This document shows positions 685-10,720 of a DNA stretch of 11,550 nucleotides, piece by piece. Positions within the stretch are counted from its first letter, which is position 1. Each line of letters opens with the position of its first letter. This stretch comes from a virus: UHGV virus genome UHGV-0196030, one strand, 5' to 3'. Both the position numbers and the translations under genes were made by a program. Under the pieces are notes generated by a model. It ran no database searches, was not told the DNA's origin, and was given only the letters and a program-made list of their open reading frames with translations.

Positions 685-717
685 TCAGGAAGAAGTGATG
701 AGTAACATTTTTCACAG
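685..717. repeat. Left junction: imperfect copy of the eutA 3' end (attL-like) just upstream of the eutB start
   Basis: TCAGGAAGAAGTGATGAGTAACATTTTTCACAG resembles the genuine eutA 3' end at 10688..10720 (TCAGGAAGGAAATGCGAGTGATTTCACCGTCAC): the first 8 nt are identical, then shared TG, GAGT and TTTCAC blocks with indels. Aligned by eye. Confidence 0.45.
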
Positions 718-957
718 CCTGCAAACAATTCTATTTCATCGTTAGCCCTTGTCCTGTAAGGTAATTGGCTTAACACGCCCGCTATTCATCCTGCCGAACG
801 CAACCGAACGCGCCGGATACATGAGCGGGGTTATCGAGTCGTTAGATCGAGGTATCCGGTTTTAAGCAAGACACCACTGACAGCAAAGGGCATAGAGGCC
901 GCCCAGCCGAAGGACAAGCCCTACAAACTCACCGATTCACTAACACCTGGCCTGTTC

Positions 958-2067
958 TTGCTGGTCCATCCCAATGGCAGCAAATACTGGCGATTCCGGT
1001 ACTGGATAGACAAGAAAGAGCGATTACAGGCCATCGGGGTATATCCGCTGATTAGCCTCAAGGAAGCCCGCAAACGCGCCACAGAGAGCCGTTTACTGAT
1101 AGCCCAGGGAATTGACCCAATGGAAGAAGCACGCAAGGAGAAAGCCATTGATGCGCTCAACATGGCGGCAAGTTTTAAGACCGTGGCGGAGGACTGGCTG
1201 ACTACTAGGGTGAGCGGTTGGTCAGAGTCCTACACGAAACAGGTCAGGACGGCGCTGAAAAATGACGTTTACCCCGTGCTGGGTAAGCGTTCAATCGTCG
1301 ATATAACCGCCCGTGATGTTCTGGCATTGCTTCAGAAGAAAGAGCGCACCGCGCCGGAGGCGGCCCATAAGTTACGCCAGCGTATCGGGGAGATCTTCAA
1401 ATTTGCCGTTATCACCGAACTGGTTAACCGGAATCCGGTTGCAGATCTGGATACGGCATTGAAAGCCAGACGCCCAGGCCATAACGCATGGATACAAATT
1501 AGTGAAATTCCGGCCTTCTACAAAGCCCTTGAGAGAGCCGGGAGCGTACAGATTCAGACGGCAATACGCTTGCTTATATTGACGGCATTAAGAACGGCAG
1601 AATTGCGAAAAATGCGGTGGGAATGGGTAGATCTGAGCACGGCAACAATCACCCTACCCGCTGAAGTCATGAAGGCCCGCCGACCGCACGTAGTCCCGTT
1701 ATCCCGGCAAGCGGTCGAGCTATTACAGGACCAGTTTACCCGCAGCGGGTACAGTGCTTTCGTCTTTCCGGGCCGATTCATGGATAAGCCATTGTCAGCA
1801 AGTGCCATCCTTAAAGCCCTGGAGCGTATCGGGTACAAGTCGATCGCCACTGGTCATGGTTGGCGGACCACCTTTTCAACGGCGCTTAATGAGTCTGGCA
1901 GATACTCACCAGACTGGATCGAAATCCAATTGGCCCACGTTCCGAAAGGTGTGCGCGGTGTATATAACCAGGCCGCCTACCTGAAGCAACGGCGGGTAAT
2001 GATGCAGGACTACGCGGACGCTATTGTTCTGATATTGGCTGGTGACGGTAATCCGCTGGAACCGTGA
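958..2067 (+). CDS. intZ: P4-family tyrosine integrase (site-specific recombinase); ORF shown from the first in-frame TTG, but N-terminal homology continues upstream to about 868
   Basis: N-terminal arm-binding-type sequence ...KDKPYKLTDSLTPGLFLLVHPNGSKYWRFRYWIDKKERLQAIGVYPLISLKEARKRATESRLL... and C-terminal catalytic region ...HGWRTTFSTALNESGRYSPDWIEIQLAHVPKGVRGVYNQAAYLKQRRVMMQDYADAI (H-x-x-R and catalytic Tyr as in P4 Int). Symbol given by locus analogy to K-12 CPZ-55, not by sequence identity check. Confidence 0.88.
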   Translation: MLVHPNGSKYWRFRYWIDKKERLQAIGVYPLISLKEARKRATESRLLIAQGIDPMEEARKEKAIDALNMAASFKTVAEDWLTTRVSGWSESYTKQVRTALKNDVYPVLGKRSIVDITARDVLALLQKKERTAPEAAHKLRQRIGEIFKFAVITELVNRNPVADLDTALKARRPGHNAWIQISEIPAFYKALERAGSVQIQTAIRLLILTALRTAELRKMRWEWVDLSTATITLPAEVMKARRPHVVPLSRQAVELLQDQFTRSGYSAFVFPGRFMDKPLSASAILKALERIGYKSIATGHGWRTTFSTALNESGRYSPDWIEIQLAHVPKGVRGVYNQAAYLKQRRVMMQDYADAIVLILAGDGNPLEP

Positions 2068-2074
2068 ACTATAA

Positions 2075-2100
2075 GGCCGGATTCGTCCGGCTTTTCTTTC
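2075..2100 (+). terminator. Rho-independent terminator after the integrase gene
   Basis: Stem GCCGGA (2076..2081) / TCCGGC (2086..2091), loop TTCG, followed by TTTTCTTTC, 8 nt after the TGA stop at 2065..2067. Confidence 0.6.
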
Positions 2101-2104
2101 GCTA

Positions 2105-2135
2105 ATTATTCCATTATTCCAATTAAGTGGAATAA
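2105..2135. promoter_or_regulatory. Operator-like site: tandem ATTATTCC x2 followed by a perfect 8-bp inverted repeat TTATTCCA-n6-TGGAATAA
   Basis: ATTATTCC at 2105..2112 and 2113..2120. Inverted-repeat arms at 2114..2121 and 2128..2135 with a 6-bp spacer, in an AT-rich intergenic region upstream of the 2277 CDS. Confidence 0.35.
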
Positions 2136-2214
2136 ATTATTCAATATCAAGAACTTAAATCCATGTTTGCAACGAAAGATCCAGAGTTCGAAAATAGGAT
2201 CAACACAAATAAAA

Positions 2215-2244
2215 GCCCCCGGCATGTTGCAGCATTCCGGGGGC
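2215..2244 (+). promoter_or_regulatory. Stable stem-loop in the putative 5' leader of the 2277 CDS
   Basis: 8-bp GC stem GCCCCCGG (2215..2222) / CCGGGGGC (2237..2244) with a 14-nt loop, about 30 nt upstream of the AAGGAG Shine-Dalgarno. Confidence 0.3.
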
Positions 2245-2276
2245 GGTATGAGAAACAAGCTAAAGGAGAATTTCTC

Positions 2277-2786
2277 ATGTCTGATATGCTAGCAGTAGAA
2301 CAAGAAACAAACAATGATGTTCGTCAATTTTTAAATAAAATTAACGAGTTACGGAATAAAGCACCCAAAAACGAAGAGACTAAACACGAAGAACACACGC
2401 CAGATCATTACGAGGCAAAACAGCAGGAGCAAGCCTGGCGTGGCAACCTGCGCTACCTGGATACATTAAACCGACTTGATGAGGTATTGCCTCGCAAACT
2501 GTACGAAAGGTGGGAGAAAGAACATACAGTCAACGACGAGGCCGTGCTACGCGCCCTTTGCTACTTTGCTGGTACTGGCAAAAACTCACAGTTGGGATGG
2601 TGCAGGGTTGGCAGGGGAACAATCGACAAGCGAGCCAGGCTATCAAAAAACACGGTTAAAAAATGCCTCGATCGTCTGGTCCACCACTTCAAACTGGTTG
2701 AGCGTACTGAAGGCTATATACCCGGATCGGCAGAAAGGGAATGCAACGAGTACCAGCTATTATTCAAGCCGTACAACATGAAATAA
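2277..2786 (+). CDS. Hypothetical protein, 169 aa, with a C-terminal winged-helix-like DNA-binding region (possible replication initiator or regulator)
   Basis: Strong SD AAGGAG (2263..2268) 8 nt before the ATG at 2277; the ORF-track start at 2163 has no SD. C-terminal segment GWCRVGRGTIDKRARLSKNTVKKCLDRLVHHFKLVERTEG looks like a winged helix. Followed by a terminator and an iteron cluster. Confidence 0.55.
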   Translation: MSDMLAVEQETNNDVRQFLNKINELRNKAPKNEETKHEEHTPDHYEAKQQEQAWRGNLRYLDTLNRLDEVLPRKLYERWEKEHTVNDEAVLRALCYFAGTGKNSQLGWCRVGRGTIDKRARLSKNTVKKCLDRLVHHFKLVERTEGYIPGSAERECNEYQLLFKPYNMK

Positions 2787-2794
2787 CGGAATCA

Positions 2795-2817
2795 GGCGGG
2801 CAATGTTCCCGCCTTTT
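2795..2817 (+). terminator. Rho-independent terminator after the 2277..2786 CDS
   Basis: Stem GGCGGG (2795..2800) / CCCGCC (2808..2813), loop CAATGTT, then TTTTCTTT. Confidence 0.65.
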
Positions 2818-2840
2818 CTTTGCCTTAATTCCATGAATTC

Positions 2841-2964
2841 AGGTGGGTCAAAAGTTGCCGTTAAGGTGGGTCAAAAGTTGCCGAGTAAGAATTCTACTAT
2901 TAAGAATTCTAGGCGACGGGAGTTTTTTAGCCTCCCGGTCGGTCATAGAGAGTCGCCTAGAGTT
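2841..2964. repeat. Iteron-like repeat cluster: two identical 20-bp direct repeats, two TAAGAATTCT repeats and a nested palindrome
   Basis: AGGTGGGTCAAAAGTTGCCG at 2841..2860 and 2864..2883, identical, 23 bp centre to centre. TAAGAATTCT at 2886..2895 and 2901..2910. Inverted repeat CTAGGCGAC (2909..2917) / GTCGCCTAG (2952..2960) enclosing hairpin CGGGAG-n9-CTCCCG. Confidence 0.6.
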
Positions 2965-3793
2965 AAAACAGAAGAATTGTTTCGCCGCCTGATAGGTCGG
3001 CTGGTTGCGAGCATTAACCATGCTGATTAGCGCAATCATTTCCAGCAAGCTGGAAACGCCCATTCACTCACGCACAACCTGAACAGCAGACCAACAGAAC
3101 ATCATGGCGATTCGTTCATGGGTAGCGCGGTATATCTCAAATGTGACGCCTCTTGTTGCTGGACCTTCGGAAAACACCATGGAGACGAAAGTATTCAATC
3201 TGGTCTGGCAGCAGGGAGAGCTTCGCTTCGCTCGTCTCCTGGGGCCAATGCTCAATGAAACGACGTAAGGCACGGAGCGCTCACCATAGGCAGACACATA
3301 AACATCTGAGAGCGCACCTTCTATCGCGCTACGCGCTCAATAAAAACCAACGACACCGCCATCCTGCCTGACCGATGTTTTTAACCAGCGTATACAGAGA
3401 AACAGACAATAGCATGAAATCAGCGTATATCCAGGTGCAGACGGCACTATCACACAACGCACAGCAGGCTTAAGTGACCACTCAGGAAACTTTATCCCCG
3501 CCACCGACTAACGCAAACCGTCCTGACCGCGCCAAATTCGAAAGGAATGCTACCTTAAACGCGATTAACACACATAAGCGCCACACTTACTTACCTGAAA
3601 ACTTCACAGCGTCACAGCGCGTTTTAGACACGTTAAAATCGATGCGATTTCATTAAATTTTTTTCACTCGCCTGAATGGTGGCAATCAGGACTGATTGCA
3701 ACATTGCCCCGCCTCGATACTGAGCGCATAATAAATACATACATTAAGCGGAAACGTCATTAACAGATTTGGAAAAACAATGGGTTACACATC

Positions 3794-4414
3794 ATGCGCA
3801 TATCAAAGCAGCAACGCCAAATCCTCGACTATCTGGCAGAAAACGAATCAATCACAGCACGCCAGGCGGCAGATCTCGTTTATGGCGGCAACGTTACCCG
3901 CGTACAGGTCGATGCAGCCCGCCGTTCACTGATGGCGCTGGTCAGCAATGGGCTAATCATGAAACAAGGCCGCGCTTTCGTAGCTGAAAGACATATCAAT
4001 CACGCTTATAGCCAGGACGTTGAAGAGTTGCGCCGTCAGATCCTTTGGGTATTCAGCAAAGAGGGGCAGGACTATCTCATTTCTGAGCGTCCAAATTACG
4101 CCGCCAAAGAGTTAACAGTAAGCGGATTGTCGTGCGCACTGGATTATCTTGTCGGTGAAGGTTGCGTTACTTACAAGCAGCTATGGCACGCCCTGAACAC
4201 GCTTGTAGAAGATGGTTTACTCATTGCCACGCGTGAGAATATCGAATACTGGATAATGCCGCGTTCAGGTCGCCGCAATCATGCGCGGTATATTTCAGGC
4301 AACAAATACAGAACGCCTGACTTTAATCCGACACAGGAAGATCGGGACCGTGCCGAAATGATGTGCAGGGAACGGGAGAAAAGATTCATGGACAAGTTGT
4401 TTTCGATGCGGTGA
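3794..4414 (+). CDS. Hypothetical protein, 206 aa, with an N-terminal winged-helix/HTH-like region (putative DNA-binding protein)
   Basis: Long ORF with protein-like composition. N-terminal ISKQQRQILDYLAENESITARQAADLVYGG...RSLMALVSNGLIMKQGR resembles MarR/winged-helix recognition helices. Weak SD. A strong terminator follows directly. Confidence 0.5.
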   Translation: MRISKQQRQILDYLAENESITARQAADLVYGGNVTRVQVDAARRSLMALVSNGLIMKQGRAFVAERHINHAYSQDVEELRRQILWVFSKEGQDYLISERPNYAAKELTVSGLSCALDYLVGEGCVTYKQLWHALNTLVEDGLLIATRENIEYWIMPRSGRRNHARYISGNKYRTPDFNPTQEDRDRAEMMCREREKRFMDKLFSMR

Positions 4415-4868: not shown

Positions 4869-4883
4869 GAAGAGGTGATGAAA

Positions 4884-5075
4884 ATGAACGACTTTCCCGA
4901 ATTGATAAGCTGCGAACAAGTCGCTCGACTTTTTTGTGTAAGCAAGCGCACGATTCTCAGGTGGGTAGATAAAATCCCCGGCTTTCCAATCCCTGTAAGT
5001 CCTGAAGGAACCCCGCTCCGCTTTATTCGCAGCGAAATTCTCGAGTATTTCTACAGAGGGCACAACCATAAATAA
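4884..5075 (+). CDS. alpA: AlpA-family phage transcriptional regulator / excisionase-like HTH protein (about 63 aa)
   Basis: Small protein with the AlpA-like pattern ...LISCEQVARLFCVSKRTILRWVDKIPGFPIPVSPEGTPLRFIRSEILEYF. SD GAGG at 4872..4875, 8 nt before the ATG at 4884; in-frame GTG 4875 and ATG 4878 sit too close to the SD. Symbol is family-level. Confidence 0.7.
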   Translation: MNDFPELISCEQVARLFCVSKRTILRWVDKIPGFPIPVSPEGTPLRFIRSEILEYFYRGHNHK

Positions 5076-5111: not shown

Positions 5112-5507
5112 ATGACCAATATCGAAAGATTAGAACGCTGTGCCGATATTATGCGGCGCAGATGGATTTATGACCCTGAAGCGGGTTTATTGTTTAGCCG
5201 TGAAACAAAAGACGTTATCAAAGGCAGCATGACCAATAAAGGGCATTTGGTTGTAACGGTACATGAAGGTAAATTCAAAGTGACACTCACCTATCAGAAA
5301 GCCTGCTATGTATACACATACGGCGCTTATGACGAGACATTATATGAAGTGCACCACGTTAATTTGAACAAACAGGATAACCGCATCAAGAATATTCGCC
5401 TGATGCCGAAAGAAAAGCACCGCCGGATACATAAAAACGTCCGCAAACTTATTCGGCTGGGCCACACACAATGGCTTCAACCGCAATTAATTGAACAATC
5501 ACTATAA
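5112..5507 (+). CDS. HNH endonuclease (HNH_3-type), 131 aa
   Basis: Motif YEVHHVNLNKQDNRIKNIRLMPKEKHRRIH matches the H-H-x-N...N-R...N-(I/L)-R signature of phage HNH_3 nucleases. SD GAGG at 5100..5103, 8 nt before the ATG. Confidence 0.6.
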   Translation: MTNIERLERCADIMRRRWIYDPEAGLLFSRETKDVIKGSMTNKGHLVVTVHEGKFKVTLTYQKACYVYTYGAYDETLYEVHHVNLNKQDNRIKNIRLMPKEKHRRIHKNVRKLIRLGHTQWLQPQLIEQSL

Positions 5508-5524
5508 ACACAGGAGTAAATACC

Positions 5525-5788
5525 ATGCATTCATTAGACAGTTATTTTCAGCGCACGACAGCCCCTAAATCAGCTGCCCAGGAACGCCGTGAGGAATTCC
5601 ATGAGAAAGTGATGCGTTCTGCTGATTATATTGCGGACAAGTTCGTGGAAACGGTTCGTCCACTTGTTGATGAAGTAGCTGATAAACTTCAGTCTGAAAT
5701 GCCGGAAGATATGGAAGGCACTGCAAAGCGGCGACTCATTTGCGAATTAAGTCGTCGTTTTGGCGTGTCAATAAGCGCTTTTAAATAA
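5525..5788 (+). CDS. Hypothetical protein, 87 aa
   Basis: Strong SD AGGAG (5512..5516) 8 nt before the ATG. Tightly packed between the HNH gene and the next ORF. Charged, protein-like composition. Confidence 0.5.
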   Translation: MHSLDSYFQRTTAPKSAAQERREEFHEKVMRSADYIADKFVETVRPLVDEVADKLQSEMPEDMEGTAKRRLICELSRRFGVSISAFK

Positions 5789-5810
5789 TCGAAAAAAGGG
5801 GGGAAAGATA

Positions 5811-6353
5811 ATGGACGCATTTGAGGTACTGGCAAATAAAGGCGCGGAACTGGTAGCACAGCGTGATAAAACCGCCAACGAAGGGGAACGCGCACTGCTA
5901 AATAGACAGATTAAAGCGATCCGTATGGCCCAGTTTAAATTAATCAGCAATGAAGTTATCGAAACAATTAAACCGCAGATCCCACAAATCGTTGCTGACG
6001 CTATTAAAGCCGCCGGACTGGAGAAACGCATTGCCGGGCTAAAAACGAACGCAGAGAAAATGGAGATGCACAAACAGAGCGGTGCTCCGAATCCCGATGA
6101 GTACTTCTCACCGGATGTTGAGTTTATGGCGCAGGTTGAGGAACGTCTGGGTAGCTGTCTCACCGAGGAACAGCGTCGCTATTTTGATGGAGTGGATAGT
6201 TCGGCAGGTATTGACCTGAACTCGTATTTCGGTCGTGAAATTGAGCATTTTGATGCCGCCCCGTCTATGCCGGAGCCAGAAACAGAAATGGCCGCCGATC
6301 CTGAAGCTGAGCAACGGAAACGCGTATTCAATGCGATAGGGATTCGGTACTGA
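5811..6353 (+). CDS. Hypothetical protein, 180 aa, acidic C-terminus
   Basis: G-rich SD (AAGGGGGG, 5796..5803) before the ATG at 5811, which lies 22 nt after the previous stop. Codon usage looks coding. No motif recognised. Confidence 0.5.
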   Translation: MDAFEVLANKGAELVAQRDKTANEGERALLNRQIKAIRMAQFKLISNEVIETIKPQIPQIVADAIKAAGLEKRIAGLKTNAEKMEMHKQSGAPNPDEYFSPDVEFMAQVEERLGSCLTEEQRRYFDGVDSSAGIDLNSYFGREIEHFDAAPSMPEPETEMAADPEAEQRKRVFNAIGIRY

Positions 6354-6404
6354 TCGGATAAAAGAAAGCCGGGAATTACCCCGGCTGACTTAACAATGTG
6401 ACCA

Positions 6405-6779
6405 ATGAACAAATCGGACAAGACAAACAGGATAAGCAGTCTCGAAACAATGTTCGGGAACTATATTAGCACAAGTCCGGAGAAAATCATCATGTTGGCA
6501 CTACGCATCATGCAGGGCATCGCTAAGACCCTCGCAGAACATGTCTTAGACCTGAAACATTCGCCACTGAGCAAACAGGCCATGAAGCGCCAAACGCTTC
6601 GTCTGTGGGCTGAATATTCGCTTGGAACTATCAATAAGCTCATCAATATGAAGTCGAAAGATAATGGCAGTGTCCATGAGTGTAACAGCGAAGAAAAGGA
6701 ATTTGTGAAACGCCTGAAGTTAATCCGCGCCGATATTCACTCACAACTGGCCTCTTGTGGTTGCGATATTGATGACTAA
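6405..6779 (+). CDS. Hypothetical protein (124 aa from ATG 6405; a better-supported start at ATG 6492 would give 95 aa)
   Basis: ATG 6405 has no SD. The in-frame ATG at 6492 is preceded by GGAGA (6479..6483) at 8-nt spacing. The C-terminal region is the same either way. Confidence 0.45.
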   Translation: MNKSDKTNRISSLETMFGNYISTSPEKIIMLALRIMQGIAKTLAEHVLDLKHSPLSKQAMKRQTLRLWAEYSLGTINKLINMKSKDNGSVHECNSEEKEFVKRLKLIRADIHSQLASCGCDIDD

Positions 6780-6808
6780 CAGCGTGCTAACGGGGGGTTA
6801 ATCGCCCC

Positions 6809-6858
6809 TTAGCGATAGCTTAGCTAACTGTTAGTGAGCCTTAGCGACATCTTAGCGA
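6809..6858. repeat. Five helically phased iterons TTAG(C/T)(G/T)A immediately upstream of the terS-like gene (candidate packaging or protein-binding array)
   Basis: TTAGCGA 6809, TTAGCTA 6820, TTAGTGA 6831, TTAGCGA 6841, TTAGCGA 6852: spacing 11, 11, 10, 11 bp. Preceded by a G-rich hairpin-like GGGGGG-TTAAT-CGCCCC at 6792..6808. Confidence 0.55.
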
Positions 6859-6878
6859 CAGTTTAACCGGGGGTAAAT

Positions 6879-7283
6879 GTGGAGACTGAAGATAAAGAAA
6901 TCAATAACTTGCCTGTAAATGGCAACAGGTTAGCGAGAAAAAGGGCCAAATATACCATCGCGCTGGCGGAAGAAATTTGTTTGTTGGTAGCGGAAGGCCA
7001 TAGCCTACGTGAGATCGCGAAGATGCCAGACATGCCATCGTTACGCACTTTAATGCGGTGGCAATATGAACATCCAGATTTCAGAGAGCACATCGGTATT
7101 TTTAAGTGGATTCACGCCCAGGACGCAGCAGAGCAAGCTGTTGAAGCTATCAGAGATGTAGATCTGGAAGCGGAAGACGCGCCACTGAAATTAAAACAGG
7201 CTGAGGCATTAGCCCGCACTTTGTTAGGTCGTGCCAAATTGCTTGAGAGCAAAAACAATCCATTCAACGGGGGTGACAAATGA
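6879..7283 (+). CDS. Phage terminase small subunit (TerS)-like protein, 134 aa, GTG start
   Basis: N-terminal HTH region KYTIALAEEICLLVAEGHSLREIAKMPDMPSLRTLMRWQYEHPDFREHI matches the pattern I recall for TerS-family proteins (Y-T-x-E-L-A-x-x-I-C...G-x-S-L-R-x-I...M-P-S-x-x-T-x-x-R-W). G-rich SD at 6868..6872. Confidence 0.55.
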   Translation: METEDKEINNLPVNGNRLARKRAKYTIALAEEICLLVAEGHSLREIAKMPDMPSLRTLMRWQYEHPDFREHIGIFKWIHAQDAAEQAVEAIRDVDLEAEDAPLKLKQAEALARTLLGRAKLLESKNNPFNGGDK

Positions 7284-7789
7284 GCTTTATGGGTAAACAC
7301 AAGACTGGTGGTAAAGACGACGCACAGGGCTTGTTTAAGGCCGGGAAAAAGGCATCTTTAACGCCGGAAGAAAAAGATAGACAACTACAGCTTAAGCCAT
7401 TCAGCCAGTGGACAAAGCAGGATATCGCGATGTGGCGAGCCGTTAATATTGAACGCTGCCAGGAAGACGTAGACGACGGACTGATGGAAGATTTCGAACT
7501 GGACGATCTGATTAATTGTTGGGCCTTCGAGATCGTCGATGATGCGCTTATCCGTACCCGTACCGCGCCGCCGTGTGAGGAAATGATGCTGGGACTGATG
7601 AAGCCGACTACGGATCTGGTTGTTGGTTACTGTCAGATTGATGGCCTTGATAGCCTTGCCGCCGCCGATACAACCGACTCAATGGAACAAGCCGCACGCC
7701 AGCAACGGAAGATTGAACTGCAACGACGCCTACACCATGAGCGCAACGTACCAGGGCAAGAACTGGAAACCATCCCGCGCCGCCAGTAA
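7280..7789 (+). CDS. Hypothetical protein, 169 aa, translationally coupled to the terS-like gene
   Basis: ATG at 7280 overlaps the terS-like TGA stop (ATGA overlap at 7280..7283). GGGGG (7269..7273) serves as SD. Acidic, Cys-containing protein with no recognised motif. Confidence 0.5.
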   Translation: MSFMGKHKTGGKDDAQGLFKAGKKASLTPEEKDRQLQLKPFSQWTKQDIAMWRAVNIERCQEDVDDGLMEDFELDDLINCWAFEIVDDALIRTRTAPPCEEMMLGLMKPTTDLVVGYCQIDGLDSLAAADTTDSMEQAARQQRKIELQRRLHHERNVPGQELETIPRRQ

Positions 7790-7815
7790 TTTTCGGACAA
7801 GCGGGCGCGCAGCCA

Positions 7816-7841
7816 ACGCCAGGGGCATCCAGACTGGCGGA
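7816..7841 (+). repeat. Hairpin element ACGCCAGGGG-CAGACTGGCGGA, copy 1 (copy 2 at 9976..9999)
   Basis: Stem CGCCAG / CTGGCG conserved in both copies; the loops differ by a 2-nt indel. Each copy lies 10-27 nt after a stop codon (7789 and 9966). Confidence 0.45.
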
Positions 7842-8120
7842 ATATATCAATAGTGCGCATTAGATACATTATGTGAAAAACGACATGAGTATATATCAGT
7901 ACTGATTTTACTGGAAAAACTTGATTTTCAGTATCAATCCCAAAGAAGTATGGCTAATGCAGCTTTATAAGCAATTGATTCTATTAAGCGATGTTTTTTG
8001 TGATTGGTTGAAGCAAACCGGAATACGAAGACAGTGAAGCGGCAATAAACTGTTTCAATGTGAAATTATCAGAGTAAACAACAATTTTGGAGGTGTCCGC
8101 ACAACGCGGATAGCAATATC

Positions 8121-9966
8121 ATGAGTGGAAATCTTGGGACCATTTACTATGAGGTGGACGCCCGCACGGGTAAGCTACTGATGGCACAAGAAGAAGCGAA
8201 TCAGGCTTTTGATGCCATTGAGCGTGGCGCAAAACGTGCTGATAACGGCGTCAAAAAACTGAATACGCAGATGACCAAAACGTCTGCCGCAGTAAAATCA
8301 AATTTCTCATTTGCAATCAAAAACGCATCCTACCAGATAGCAGACCTTGCTACACAACTTCAGATGGGCGGTAATGCCATCCAGGTCTTTGCCGTTCAAG
8401 GGGCGCAGCTTGTCGCTGCATTTGGTACTGGCGGTGCGGTCATGGGTGCGGTCATGGCTATTGGCGGGGCAATTGCCAACAGCCTTACGGATAACATGGA
8501 TGACGCCACGGATAGAAAAATACATTGATGCGCTACTCCGCTACAGCAACGAGGTGCTAACAGCAGAAGAGCGTCAAACGGCGTTAAACGAGGCACTGAA
8601 TGCTGGGGCGTCTGCGGCAGCAATTGCCACTGGCGAAATGCTGATTAAACAGGAGCAGATCAAGCAAGAGAAGCTAAAAGGCAATGAGAACGCTGCGCTT
8701 GATATGGCGCTGGCTGAGGGCAAGTTAACGAAGGCGGATCACGATAGGCTTGTCCAGATGCGAGAAGAAACAAAGGAATTGGAGGAGAACAAACGCAAGG
8801 AAGAAGAGAACGCCAGGGAGAAAGAACGAGCAGCCAAACAGGCAGAAAGCGCGGCGAAACAGGCGGCGAAACAGGCGCAACGCGAACTTGAACAGCTTCA
8901 GAAACGCGGGCAAGGTGTAGCTGACAAGTACAACGTAGAGGGCGCAGCACAGCGTAAACTAAAAGAAGACCAGGAAGCGCTAAATGCAGCAATGGAAGCT
9001 GGCAAAATCAGCACAGAACAATATAACGCAGCGTGGGCCGGACTCCTGAGAACGGAGGCGCAACGCAAACAGCAAGCCGGATGGGATAATCTTGTCAGCC
9101 GGGAAGATAAGCTAAAAGGCCGTGTTGACCCAATCCAGCAGGTGATGAACGAATGGAATGTTCGCAAGCAAATGATGCTCGATTTAGGCGTCACTGAGGC
9201 AACCATGCGGCAAGCAGAGATCGACCACAAAGAACGAATTCTTAACCTTCAGTGGCAGCAATGGCAGGCGCAAAGCGATACTAACGCGCTTGTAGGTAAC
9301 ATGATTGATGGCCTCGCTTCCGGTGCTGGTAGCGCATTTACCGGACTGCTTAACGGATCTCAATCGTTCCAGGAATCACTTGCTAACATCGGAACGACCA
9401 TTATCAACCAGGTTGTTGGAAGCCTTGCGCAGATGGGGGCGGAATACGTTAAACAGCTTGTTATGGGTGAGGTTGCGCAGAAATCAGCCTCCGCATCAGC
9501 TACTGCAACGGCAGCGGCAACAGGCGCATCAATCGCATCATCAATGGCCCCAGCAGCAGCGGCGACAGCAACCGCGACAATGGGTACGGCCCCGATGGTG
9601 GCGATGTCTGCGATGTCGGCATTAATGACTGGCATTACAAGCCTATTTGGCGGACGTCGCTACAACGGCGGCGCGGTTAATGGCGGCAATATGTATCGAG
9701 TCGGTGAAAACAAAGTACCTGAACTATTCCAGACCAATAACGGACGGCAGTACATGATTCCGGGTGAGAATGGTCGCATCATTCCTGGTCGTGATATTGG
9801 TGGCGGTAACGTTAGCATAAACGCGCCTATAACCGTTTACCCACAAAACGGTTGGACCGAACAGGATAGCAAGGCATTGCAGCAGACGATTGAGAATACA
9901 GCGATGCGGTTGATGCAGAGAGAATCAACCAGGCCGGGCGGAATGCTCCAGGGTCGCCGCCGTTAA
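8121..9966 (+). pseudogene. Lambda gpH-like tail tape-measure gene, split by a frameshift near 8516..8528 into 8121..8528 and a second frame running to 9966
   Basis: N-terminal part (...YQIADLATQLQMGGNAIQVFAVQGAQLVAAFGTGGAVMGAVMAIGGAIANSL) resembles the lambda H region FTDVATQLAGGQSPWLILLQQGGQV. Downstream frame has coiled-coil KEEENAREKERAAKQAESAAKQAAKQAQRELEQLQKRG and a Gly/Ala/Thr-rich C-terminus ending GGMLQGRRR (lambda H ends GGLFSGGGR). The two frames are offset by +1, with an A5 run at 8516..8520 just before the frame-0 stop. No other tail genes are present. Confidence 0.6.
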
Positions 9967-10260: not shown

Positions 10261-10431
10261 TACCATCATTATTAAATCTATTAATAATCATCAAACCATA
10301 ATTAGCACAACTTATAATCGAGCAAAAATCACACAACCTTGATAAGTTGAGCTAATGGCTATATGTTTTTCTGATGAAATCCTAATGGCGAAAACTTGCG
10401 ACGATACCGAAAAAACCGCGAAAATTGAAGT

Positions 10432-10541
10432 GTTCTTTCTTTTTTTGTTTTTTATTTTTTTATTTTCTCTTTTTCTTCTCTTTCCGGTTCTCTTCTTTTT
10501 CTGGTTTTGGTTTTTTCCTTTTTTATTTTTATTCTTTCTTC
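10432..10541. repeat. Polypyrimidine (T/C-rich) low-complexity tract of about 110 bp; polypurine on the minus strand
   Basis: GTTCTTTCTTTTTTTGTTTTTTATTTTTTTATTTTCTCTTTTTCTTCTCTTTCCGGTTCTCTTCTTTTTCTGGTTTTGGTTTTTTCCTTTTTTATTTTTATTCTTTCTTC; strongly pyrimidine-biased, with only scattered purines. Confidence 0.7.
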
Positions 10542-10687
10542 AGGGTTGTGCTAAAACACACCAAAACATTTTCGCCACAAAAGCGTTAATTTCATCCTGC
10601 CAGACCATTCACTTTCACCGGATACACAGCCGGATATATTCCCACTAACACCCCACCACCCAGCGCCACGCCTGATAACTACCGTAT

Positions 10688-10720
10688 TCAGGAAGGAAAT
10701 GCGAGTGATTTCACCGTCAC
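10688..10720. repeat. Right junction: the genuine eutA 3' end, partner of the imperfect repeat at 685..717 (attR-like)
   Basis: TCAGGAAGGAAATGCGAGTGATTTCACCGTCAC includes the eutA stop codon (TCA on +, TGA on minus). See the left-junction repeat. Confidence 0.45.

Follow-up and report, generated by a model that had tools for sequence, protein, structure and literature searches.

Sequence comparison places the native start of the integrase gene intZ in a CPZ-55-type island of Escherichia coli at position 862, where a single transition (G864A) has destroyed it. This substitution is likely to silence intZ, completely or nearly so, and to leave the island locked between eutA and eutB.

The stretch of DNA analysed, hereafter the window (11,550 nucleotides; UHGV virus genome UHGV-0196030), comprises E. 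coli eutB (a minus-strand gene whose coding run ends at 673), a 10-kb CPZ-55-type island and eutA (a minus-strand open reading frame from 10688 onward), with intZ as the first gene of the island, adjoining eutB. The 8-bp direct repeat TCAGGAAG is read directly on the plus strand at 685..692, 12 nt from the eutB start codon (left copy; attL core or target-site duplication), and again on the plus strand at 10688..10695, where it overlaps the eutA stop codon (right copy; attR core). When the empty site was rebuilt by joining both flanks through a single copy of the repeat, the product had matches of 100% identity, 338 nt long, in many E. coli genomes, and the eutA-eutB junction is uninterrupted in 4965 of 5426 complete E. 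coli genomes; the island is thus bounded by perfect 8-bp direct repeats. An identical 8-bp duplication has been reported for CPZ-55 of K-12 (PMC6379469), and the same report describes the disruption of the eut operon by the CPZ-55 insertion and a carriage of 8%, in agreement with the approximately 394 complete genomes (7%) counted here with intZ at the eutA/eutB site. Genes for tRNA or tmRNA are absent from the window, which rules out tRNA-linked integration, and no direct repeats of 14 nt or more that could serve as long att sites flank the island, the core being the 8-bp repeat. Insertion directly after the eutA stop, the TCAGGAAG duplication and an orthologous intZ beside eutB assign the island to the CPZ-55 family. 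The K-12 cargo genes yffL-yffS are mostly unmatched, with alignment confined to 2076-3172 (the yffL side) and the right end, and the island is therefore a variant of this family and not the K-12 element.

The intZ coding sequence (862..2067, plus strand) comprises 401 codons and a stop, and apart from its first codon it is intact. Its product matches three Pfam families above their gathering scores, Arm-DNA-bind_3 (PF13356, 86.3 bits, residues 6-93), Phage_int_M (PF22022, 100.7 bits, residues 105-198) and Phage_integrase (PF00589, 80.3 bits, residues 211-372). In an alignment of 32 sequences extending down to 43% identity, R244, K271, H332, R335, H359 and Y368 are invariant, and their spacing relative to that of lambda Int suggests that these columns hold the catalytic residues. 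The three-domain architecture, the R-K-H-R-H-Y set and the flanking core repeats identify IntZ as a P4-type (DUF4102-bearing) tyrosine integrase, and by alignment as the orthologue of K-12 IntZ.

The integrase frame was inspected codon by codon with a script, and the description given in the original prediction held throughout. The frame is open from 760, directly behind a TAA stop at 757-759, and contains no ATG, GTG or TTG between 760 and the TTG at 958. The codon at approximately 862, where a start had been expected, is indeed TTA (862..864, plus strand), so that the homologous start has no canonical initiation codon where orthologues have TTG or ATG. The conserved N-terminal sequence, which had been placed near 868, is found in the translation as YPV followed by LSKTPLTAKGIEAAQPKDKPYKLTDS, which puts its beginning at 862-871. 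The ATG at 821 lies in another frame, as had been noted, and encodes only the 14-residue peptide MSGVIESLDRGIRF, with its stop at 863-865, while the loss attributed to a start at 958, estimated as roughly 30 residues, amounts to exactly 32. The remaining table-11 alternatives in frame are ATT 784, ATA 817, CTG 877, ATA 892 and CTG 952. A run of 66 random sense codons would lack all three canonical starts with a probability of approximately 3.6% ((58/61)^66), and the case therefore rests on comparative evidence and not on chance alone.

Alignment with K-12 IntZ, which had been proposed as a check, locates the homologous start: the annotated start of intZ in K-12 MG1655 (b2442) is a TTG, and it falls exactly opposite window positions 862-864 (the two sequences compared are TTTTGAGCAAG and TTTTAAGCAAG). 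The equivalent codon is TTG in 9 of 9 E. coli alleles with approximately 88-99.9% identity (ZH177, K-12, C41, OW1E2, ampC_0069, GPT24-02, C7, EFF60 and ATCC 8739), and PGAP places the start there in each. Three more distant homologues retrieved by exact-protein look-ups (L041, L042 and L043; 65-67% protein identity) carry ATG, TTG and ATG, respectively, at this position, which together with the E. coli alleles bears out the suggestion that the TTA is a mutated TTG start. The gene eutB adjoins one of these three homologues and was not seen on the contigs of the other two. In-frame stops lie 9 codons upstream of the start in L043 and 14 codons upstream in L042, leaving no room for a longer N-terminus. 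A scan of contigs for relatives in other species returned mostly 32-48% homologues that have ATG starts and are unalignable as nucleotides. Homologues beginning at the equivalent of 958 would have argued against a lost start; instead, the full-length family representatives in the protein database listing all start with MSKTPLTAK or a close variant (MSKPALTAK, MSETRQTAK, MGKQPLTAK, MAKQPLTTK). Relatives with 44% identity start four residues further in (MKLTARQV), and two N-domain chains from the PDB, 3JU0 and 3JTZ, can be aligned with IntZ from its residue 6 on.

Two further properties of the region agree with this position. Among the E. coli alleles, the variable sites at first, second and third codon positions number 2/2/14 in 862-957 and 62/36/246 in 862-2064, as against 2/4/5 in 817-861 and 7/12/14 in 760-861; the third-position bias thus begins at 862, a clear sign that selection acts on the protein in the first 32 codons but not in the stretch upstream. 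A Shine-Dalgarno sequence, GAGG (849..852, plus strand), lies 9 nt upstream of codon 862, and its anti-SD duplex of -7.2 kcal/mol is beyond the 5th percentile of the window background (-6.6) and is the best of any candidate start upstream of 1147.

To establish the distribution of the substitution, complete genomes were typed at codon 862 with 30-mers, which found TTA in 4 and TTG in 345 (333 + 12); the typing covered the 394 intZ-bearing complete genomes apart from some 45 that have other flanking variants. The TTA genomes are MB19 (Cuba, poultry), ET881 (China, frog), SW071610 (Galapagos, wastewater) and 20AR0354 (New Zealand, human urine), and among complete genomes this island variant is carried by the same four. 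Their identity to the window is 99.7-99.9% and in no case complete, so that the window represents a fifth source. Strain ZH177 encodes the identical 401-aa protein from a TTG start; the integrase regions of the TTA allele and this twin differ at few nucleotides, and the island cargo differs. Exact-protein look-ups in a collection of 15 billion proteins placed a 416-aa ATA-start model on 211 contigs, a 369-aa TTG-958 model on 80 contigs and the identical-protein TTG form on 83 contigs. The first two models count as proxies for TTA, as gene callers yield them only when 862 is unusable, and they imply the start-less allele on approximately 290 public contigs. TTA is also the codon at each of 14 loci sampled from isolate assemblies and from gut metagenomes, and eutB adjoins these loci wherever the upstream flank is included. 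A non-canonical codon at the equivalent of 862 occurs in none of 12 other sequences examined, and a search for an independent TTA origin on an ATCC 8739-type background gave no match. The TTA copies compared differ by approximately 0.1% or less, which makes the mutation a recent one. These comparisons indicate that TTA is a derived state inherited in a widespread E. coli lineage.

Two elements immediately upstream of the start were considered for a part in initiation. The 14-codon reading frame in the other register (821..865, plus strand) ends in a stop codon that shares bases with the integrase start (TTGA in TTG alleles and TTAA in the window), and it is probably fortuitous. Translational coupling to it was rejected, its ATG being ACG in ATCC 8739 and missing in L041-L043. 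A frameshift from it into the integrase at the T4 run 860-863 was likewise rejected, on sequence grounds alone: a +1 slip reaches the third frame, and a -1 slip would require tRNA-Phe to re-pair on GUU, with no X XXY YYZ heptamer present. The second element is an inverted repeat (813..859, plus strand) with arms CCGGATAC (813-820) and GTATCCGG (852-859), its right end 2 nt short of the start codon. Ten E. coli alleles share it unchanged, and it is almost unchanged in the 65-67% homologues. It is predicted to fold as a hairpin in every homologue, with an RNA fold z-score of only -0.78. A hairpin sequestering the Shine-Dalgarno sequence was discarded as a specific proposal, since this energy is not unusual and the arms never vary, which leaves no covariation to assess. 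The repeat may be an operator, an arm site, a weak SD-occluding hairpin or another protein-binding site.

The sequence of events that we propose is a short one. A single transition turned the native TTG of intZ into TTA; the ribosome binding site is retained, but initiation at UUA would be expected to fall one to three orders of magnitude below that at UUG, and, with no other usable start for the full-length protein, the integrase would be silenced or nearly so. The reading frame, the catalytic residues and the att cores are nevertheless intact, and the island would be expected to stay locked in the chromosome, with the eut operon left split. The available text of a study of all 64 codons in E. 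coli (bioRxiv 10.1101/063800) gives initiation at 10-100% of AUG for AUG, GUG and UUG, 1-2% for AUA, AUC, AUU and CUG, and 0.1-1% or less for the other 57 codons in a strong T7 system; UUA should belong to this lowest class, which that text describes without naming UUA individually. CPZ-55 of K-12, with its TTG start, excises in fewer than 1 per 100,000 cells (PMC3105296), and with 10- to 1000-fold less integrase its excision would be expected to become practically undetectable. Both effects ascribed to G864A, weaker translation and lost excision, are inferred from these values. The intZ reading frame is intact in every copy seen, as would be expected if the mutation is recent, but equally if the protein is still made.

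The alternative that survives best, though we consider it improbable, is that leaky initiation at UUA 862 yields rare full-length IntZ and that the element is attenuated rather than dead. The GAGG motif 9 nt upstream has been preserved and ranks as a strong Shine-Dalgarno sequence within the window, and with both this motif and its spacing untouched some leaky initiation is plausible; integrases, moreover, do their work at very low copy number. The intact frame in all copies is compatible with such a product, and a UUA start is conceivable given that, in the 64-codon study (bioRxiv 10.1101/063800), at least 46 of the 64 codons gave detectable protein synthesis in E. coli, at 0.01-2% of AUG. 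Against this, UUA agrees with AUG at one base only (the middle). The initiation factor IF3 discriminates against codons such as UUA. The low baseline of the TTG-initiated K-12 element, already below 1e-5 excisions per cell (PMC3105296), means that a further 10- to 1000-fold drop would be effectively immobilisation. Furthermore, no orthologue keeps a non-canonical codon at 862, and UUA is thus not an evolved feature comparable to the AUU of infC. Among the possibilities raised in the original prediction, the start-codon mutant therefore stands, whereas a non-canonical start or a truncated protein could contribute only as minor leak pathways.

Somewhat less probable still is the proposal that the start-less intZ is a selected, reversible lock that stabilises the island in a successful lineage and is not simple decay. 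If correct, it would explain the approximately 290 TTA contigs as against 83 for the TTG twin; residual UUA initiation or an A-to-G reversion would keep mobilisation possible, and the conserved inverted repeat abutting the start might join in control. The excess of contigs with the start-less allele does indicate that it is at least not counter-selected, and this allele could be favoured.

A truncated integrase without a working arm-binding domain, made from TTG 958 (369 aa) or ATG 1120 (315 aa), is a markedly poorer candidate. The TTG at 958..960 (plus strand) is the first canonical start in the frame and is the choice of gene callers restricted to ATG, GTG and TTG, truncated family entries beginning MEEARKEK are present in the protein database, and ATG 1120 has a moderate Shine-Dalgarno sequence (-5.1). 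However, TTG 958 itself has none (-1.5), and a start there would delete the helix at 8-13, the strand at 21-24 and the first two residues of the strand at 31-35 in the AlphaFold model, together with the invariant residues P16, K19, K22, D25 and G30. The N-domain of that model has a pLDDT of 75-91, and strand 31-35 is part of a four-stranded sheet; with residues 1-32 lost, the arm-binding domain would not be expected to fold. Arm binding is required for directional integrase recombination in lambda-type systems, and a 369-aa product would therefore not support normal excision. The product of ATG 1120 could comprise only the core-binding and catalytic domains.

We find it very hard to credit the RefSeq model, in which the protein starts at ATA 817 (817..819, plus strand) and has 416 aa with a 15-residue N-terminal extension. 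PGAP annotates this start in all four complete TTA genomes, the codon is invariant among the E. coli alleles, and AUA as a reporter start reaches 1-2% of the AUG level (bioRxiv 10.1101/063800). The invariance is accounted for by the location of the codon inside the conserved inverted repeat, and the codon has no Shine-Dalgarno sequence (+0.1 kcal/mol). The extension encoded by 817-861 bears no coding signature (2/4/5 variable sites), the upstream frame is closed 14 codons before the start in L042 and 9 codons before it in L043, and in L041 the conserved nucleotides upstream of the start fall in another frame. PGAP itself starts the gene at 862 in TTG genomes, and the ATA start is an annotation work-around that hides a lost start codon, not biology. 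A sequencing or assembly error at position 864 is excluded, as all 14 sampled contigs and four complete genomes (China, the Galapagos, New Zealand and Cuba) carry the same TTA, which is implied for approximately 290 contigs.

The silencing of intZ by G864A is retained as the preferred reading, and signs of decay in other genes of the island speak for it. The island annotation of three TTA genomes was read, and in each PGAP marks a pseudogene with an internal stop at approximately 3638-4414. The tape-measure gene is 2373 nt long in MB19, 20AR0354 and ZH177; the window copy has lost 527 nt out of frame at approximately 8513, and a different deletion of approximately 1.2 kb is present in ET881 and SW071610. 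Further cargo genes encode an HNH endonuclease and a small-terminase-like protein of the Sf6 type, alongside several unknowns. A small reading frame at 4875..5075 (plus strand) has a weak HTH_17 match (PF12728, E 3e-5, 24.6 bits, below the gathering score of 27) and is a candidate excisionase or AlpA-like factor.

The case is a routine one of fixation of a cryptic prophage-like island, in which one base change probably silences the integrase and the rest of the element looks functional. It has practical consequences for annotation, as the products listed in RefSeq as WP_072004892.1 and WP_257182219.1 (416 aa, ATA start), along with the 369-aa models, are very unlikely to exist, and in a few hundred E. 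coli assemblies the element will be misjudged by mobility software that scores intact integrase reading frames. The natural pair of TTA and TTG alleles encoding the same protein offers a simple test of how much translation of the integrase CPZ-55 excision needs, and could also test whether continuity of the eut operon is restorable.

The closest known system is CPZ-55 of K-12, which occupies the same eutB/eutA site with the same TCAGGAAG duplication. Its IntZ (b2442) is orthologous to that of the window, with approximately 88% nucleotide identity over 1-2068 and the same three domains, and the region upstream of the gene is also the same, including the Shine-Dalgarno sequence and the inverted repeat. 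The two elements differ in the start codon (TTG in K-12, TTA in the window), in length (6.8 kb in K-12, 10.0 kb in the window) and largely in cargo: the window contains the HNH endonuclease, the small-terminase-like protein and a tape-measure remnant, and what the two share is limited to 2076-3172 and the final ~70 nt of the island. More broadly, P4 Int, IntA of CP4-57 and IntS of CPS-53 share with IntZ the order Arm-DNA-bind_3, Phage_int_M, Phage_integrase and the conserved R-K-H-R-H-Y residues, and the structures 3JU0 and 3JTZ (N-domain) and 2KJ8 (central domain) match the window protein. Most P4-type integrases insert in tRNA or tmRNA genes, whereas the site of IntZ is intergenic in a protein-coding operon, and this copy differs further in lacking a start codon.

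Two other comparisons concern the lesion itself. The genes infC and pcnB, with their AUU starts, resemble this intZ in having a codon other than ATG, GTG or TTG at the initiation position behind a normal Shine-Dalgarno sequence. The AUU of infC is conserved and regulatory, however, whereas the TTA of the window is confined to one recent lineage, and by this comparison it is not an evolved non-canonical start. A better parallel is provided by 'grounded' prophages such as Qin, with its intQ pseudogene, in which the recombinase is lost or silenced and the element is fixed and decays piecemeal (PMC6379469, PMC3105296). The lesion in the window differs from these in being a single start-codon substitution in an otherwise perfect reading frame, revertible by one transition and unseen by automated annotation, but it belongs to this well-known class and is ordinary biology.

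The TTA allele of the island integrase gene intZ, which has lost its start codon, is represented in public annotations by two models that differ in where translation begins. The RefSeq pipeline PGAP assigns an ATA start and a product of 416 amino acids (817-2067 in the window; WP_072004892.1 and WP_257182219.1), and other gene callers begin at the TTG at 958 to give 369 amino acids. These models are found on 211 and 80 public contigs, respectively, and both are probably wrong.

Immediately before the integrase gene lies a perfect 8-bp inverted repeat, with arms at 813-820 (CCGGATAC) and 852-859 (GTATCCGG) separated by a 31-nt spacer and with its right end 2 nt upstream of the integrase start. 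The arms are unchanged in nine of ten E. coli intZ alleles, the allele of ATCC 8739 having one change, and are nearly invariant in homologues of 65-67% identity, whereas the spacer is variable. As the predicted RNA fold of the repeat is not unusually stable (z -0.78), it may represent a DNA operator or an arm-type site. Further into the island, a 23-nt tandem repeat (unit TTmAGGTGGGTCAAAAGTTGCCG) occupies 2838-2883, with two copies in the window and in the TTA genome MB19, three in 20AR0354, which also carries TTA, and four in K-12; it looks like a set of iterons or a protein-binding array. A 66-amino-acid ORF with a GTG start (4875-5075) may encode an excisionase or an AlpA-like recombination directionality factor, judging from an HTH_17 match (E 3e-5) whose 24.6 bits fall below the gathering score of 27.

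Other island genes are decaying. The tape-measure gene (8121-9966) has an out-of-frame deletion of 527 nt, with its junction at about 8513-8515, relative to the intact 2373-nt gene of MB19, 20AR0354 and ZH177 (a strain with a TTG intZ start). In the TTA genomes ET881 and SW071610 another stretch is missing, about 1.2 kb long and equivalent to 7296-8513. In all three TTA genomes for which the island annotation was examined (MB19, ET881 and 20AR0354), PGAP reports an internal stop in the homologue of approximately 3638-4414 and marks this gene as a pseudogene; the window ORF at 3794-4414, which has a weak winged-helix match, is the downstream part of the gene. A low-complexity pyrimidine-rich tract (10425-10550) of T and C runs and overlapping degenerate repeats is located immediately interior to the island's right boundary, within a dubious 97-amino-acid ORF.

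The cargo at 5112-7789 resembles a packaging-hijack module, in which an HNH endonuclease gene (5112-5507) and a gene for a small-terminase-like protein of the Sf6 type (6879-7283) are followed by a tape-measure remnant. The ORFs scanned included no identifiable gene for a capsid protein or large terminase, which suggests a satellite-like origin. In another assembly (GCA_025155425.1, JAJRON010000026.1), an IntZ homologue of 66% identity with an ATG start likewise directly adjoins eutB, but the cargo differs and includes a resolvase/HTH-like gene. Thus, a wider family of islands makes use of the eutA/eutB site.
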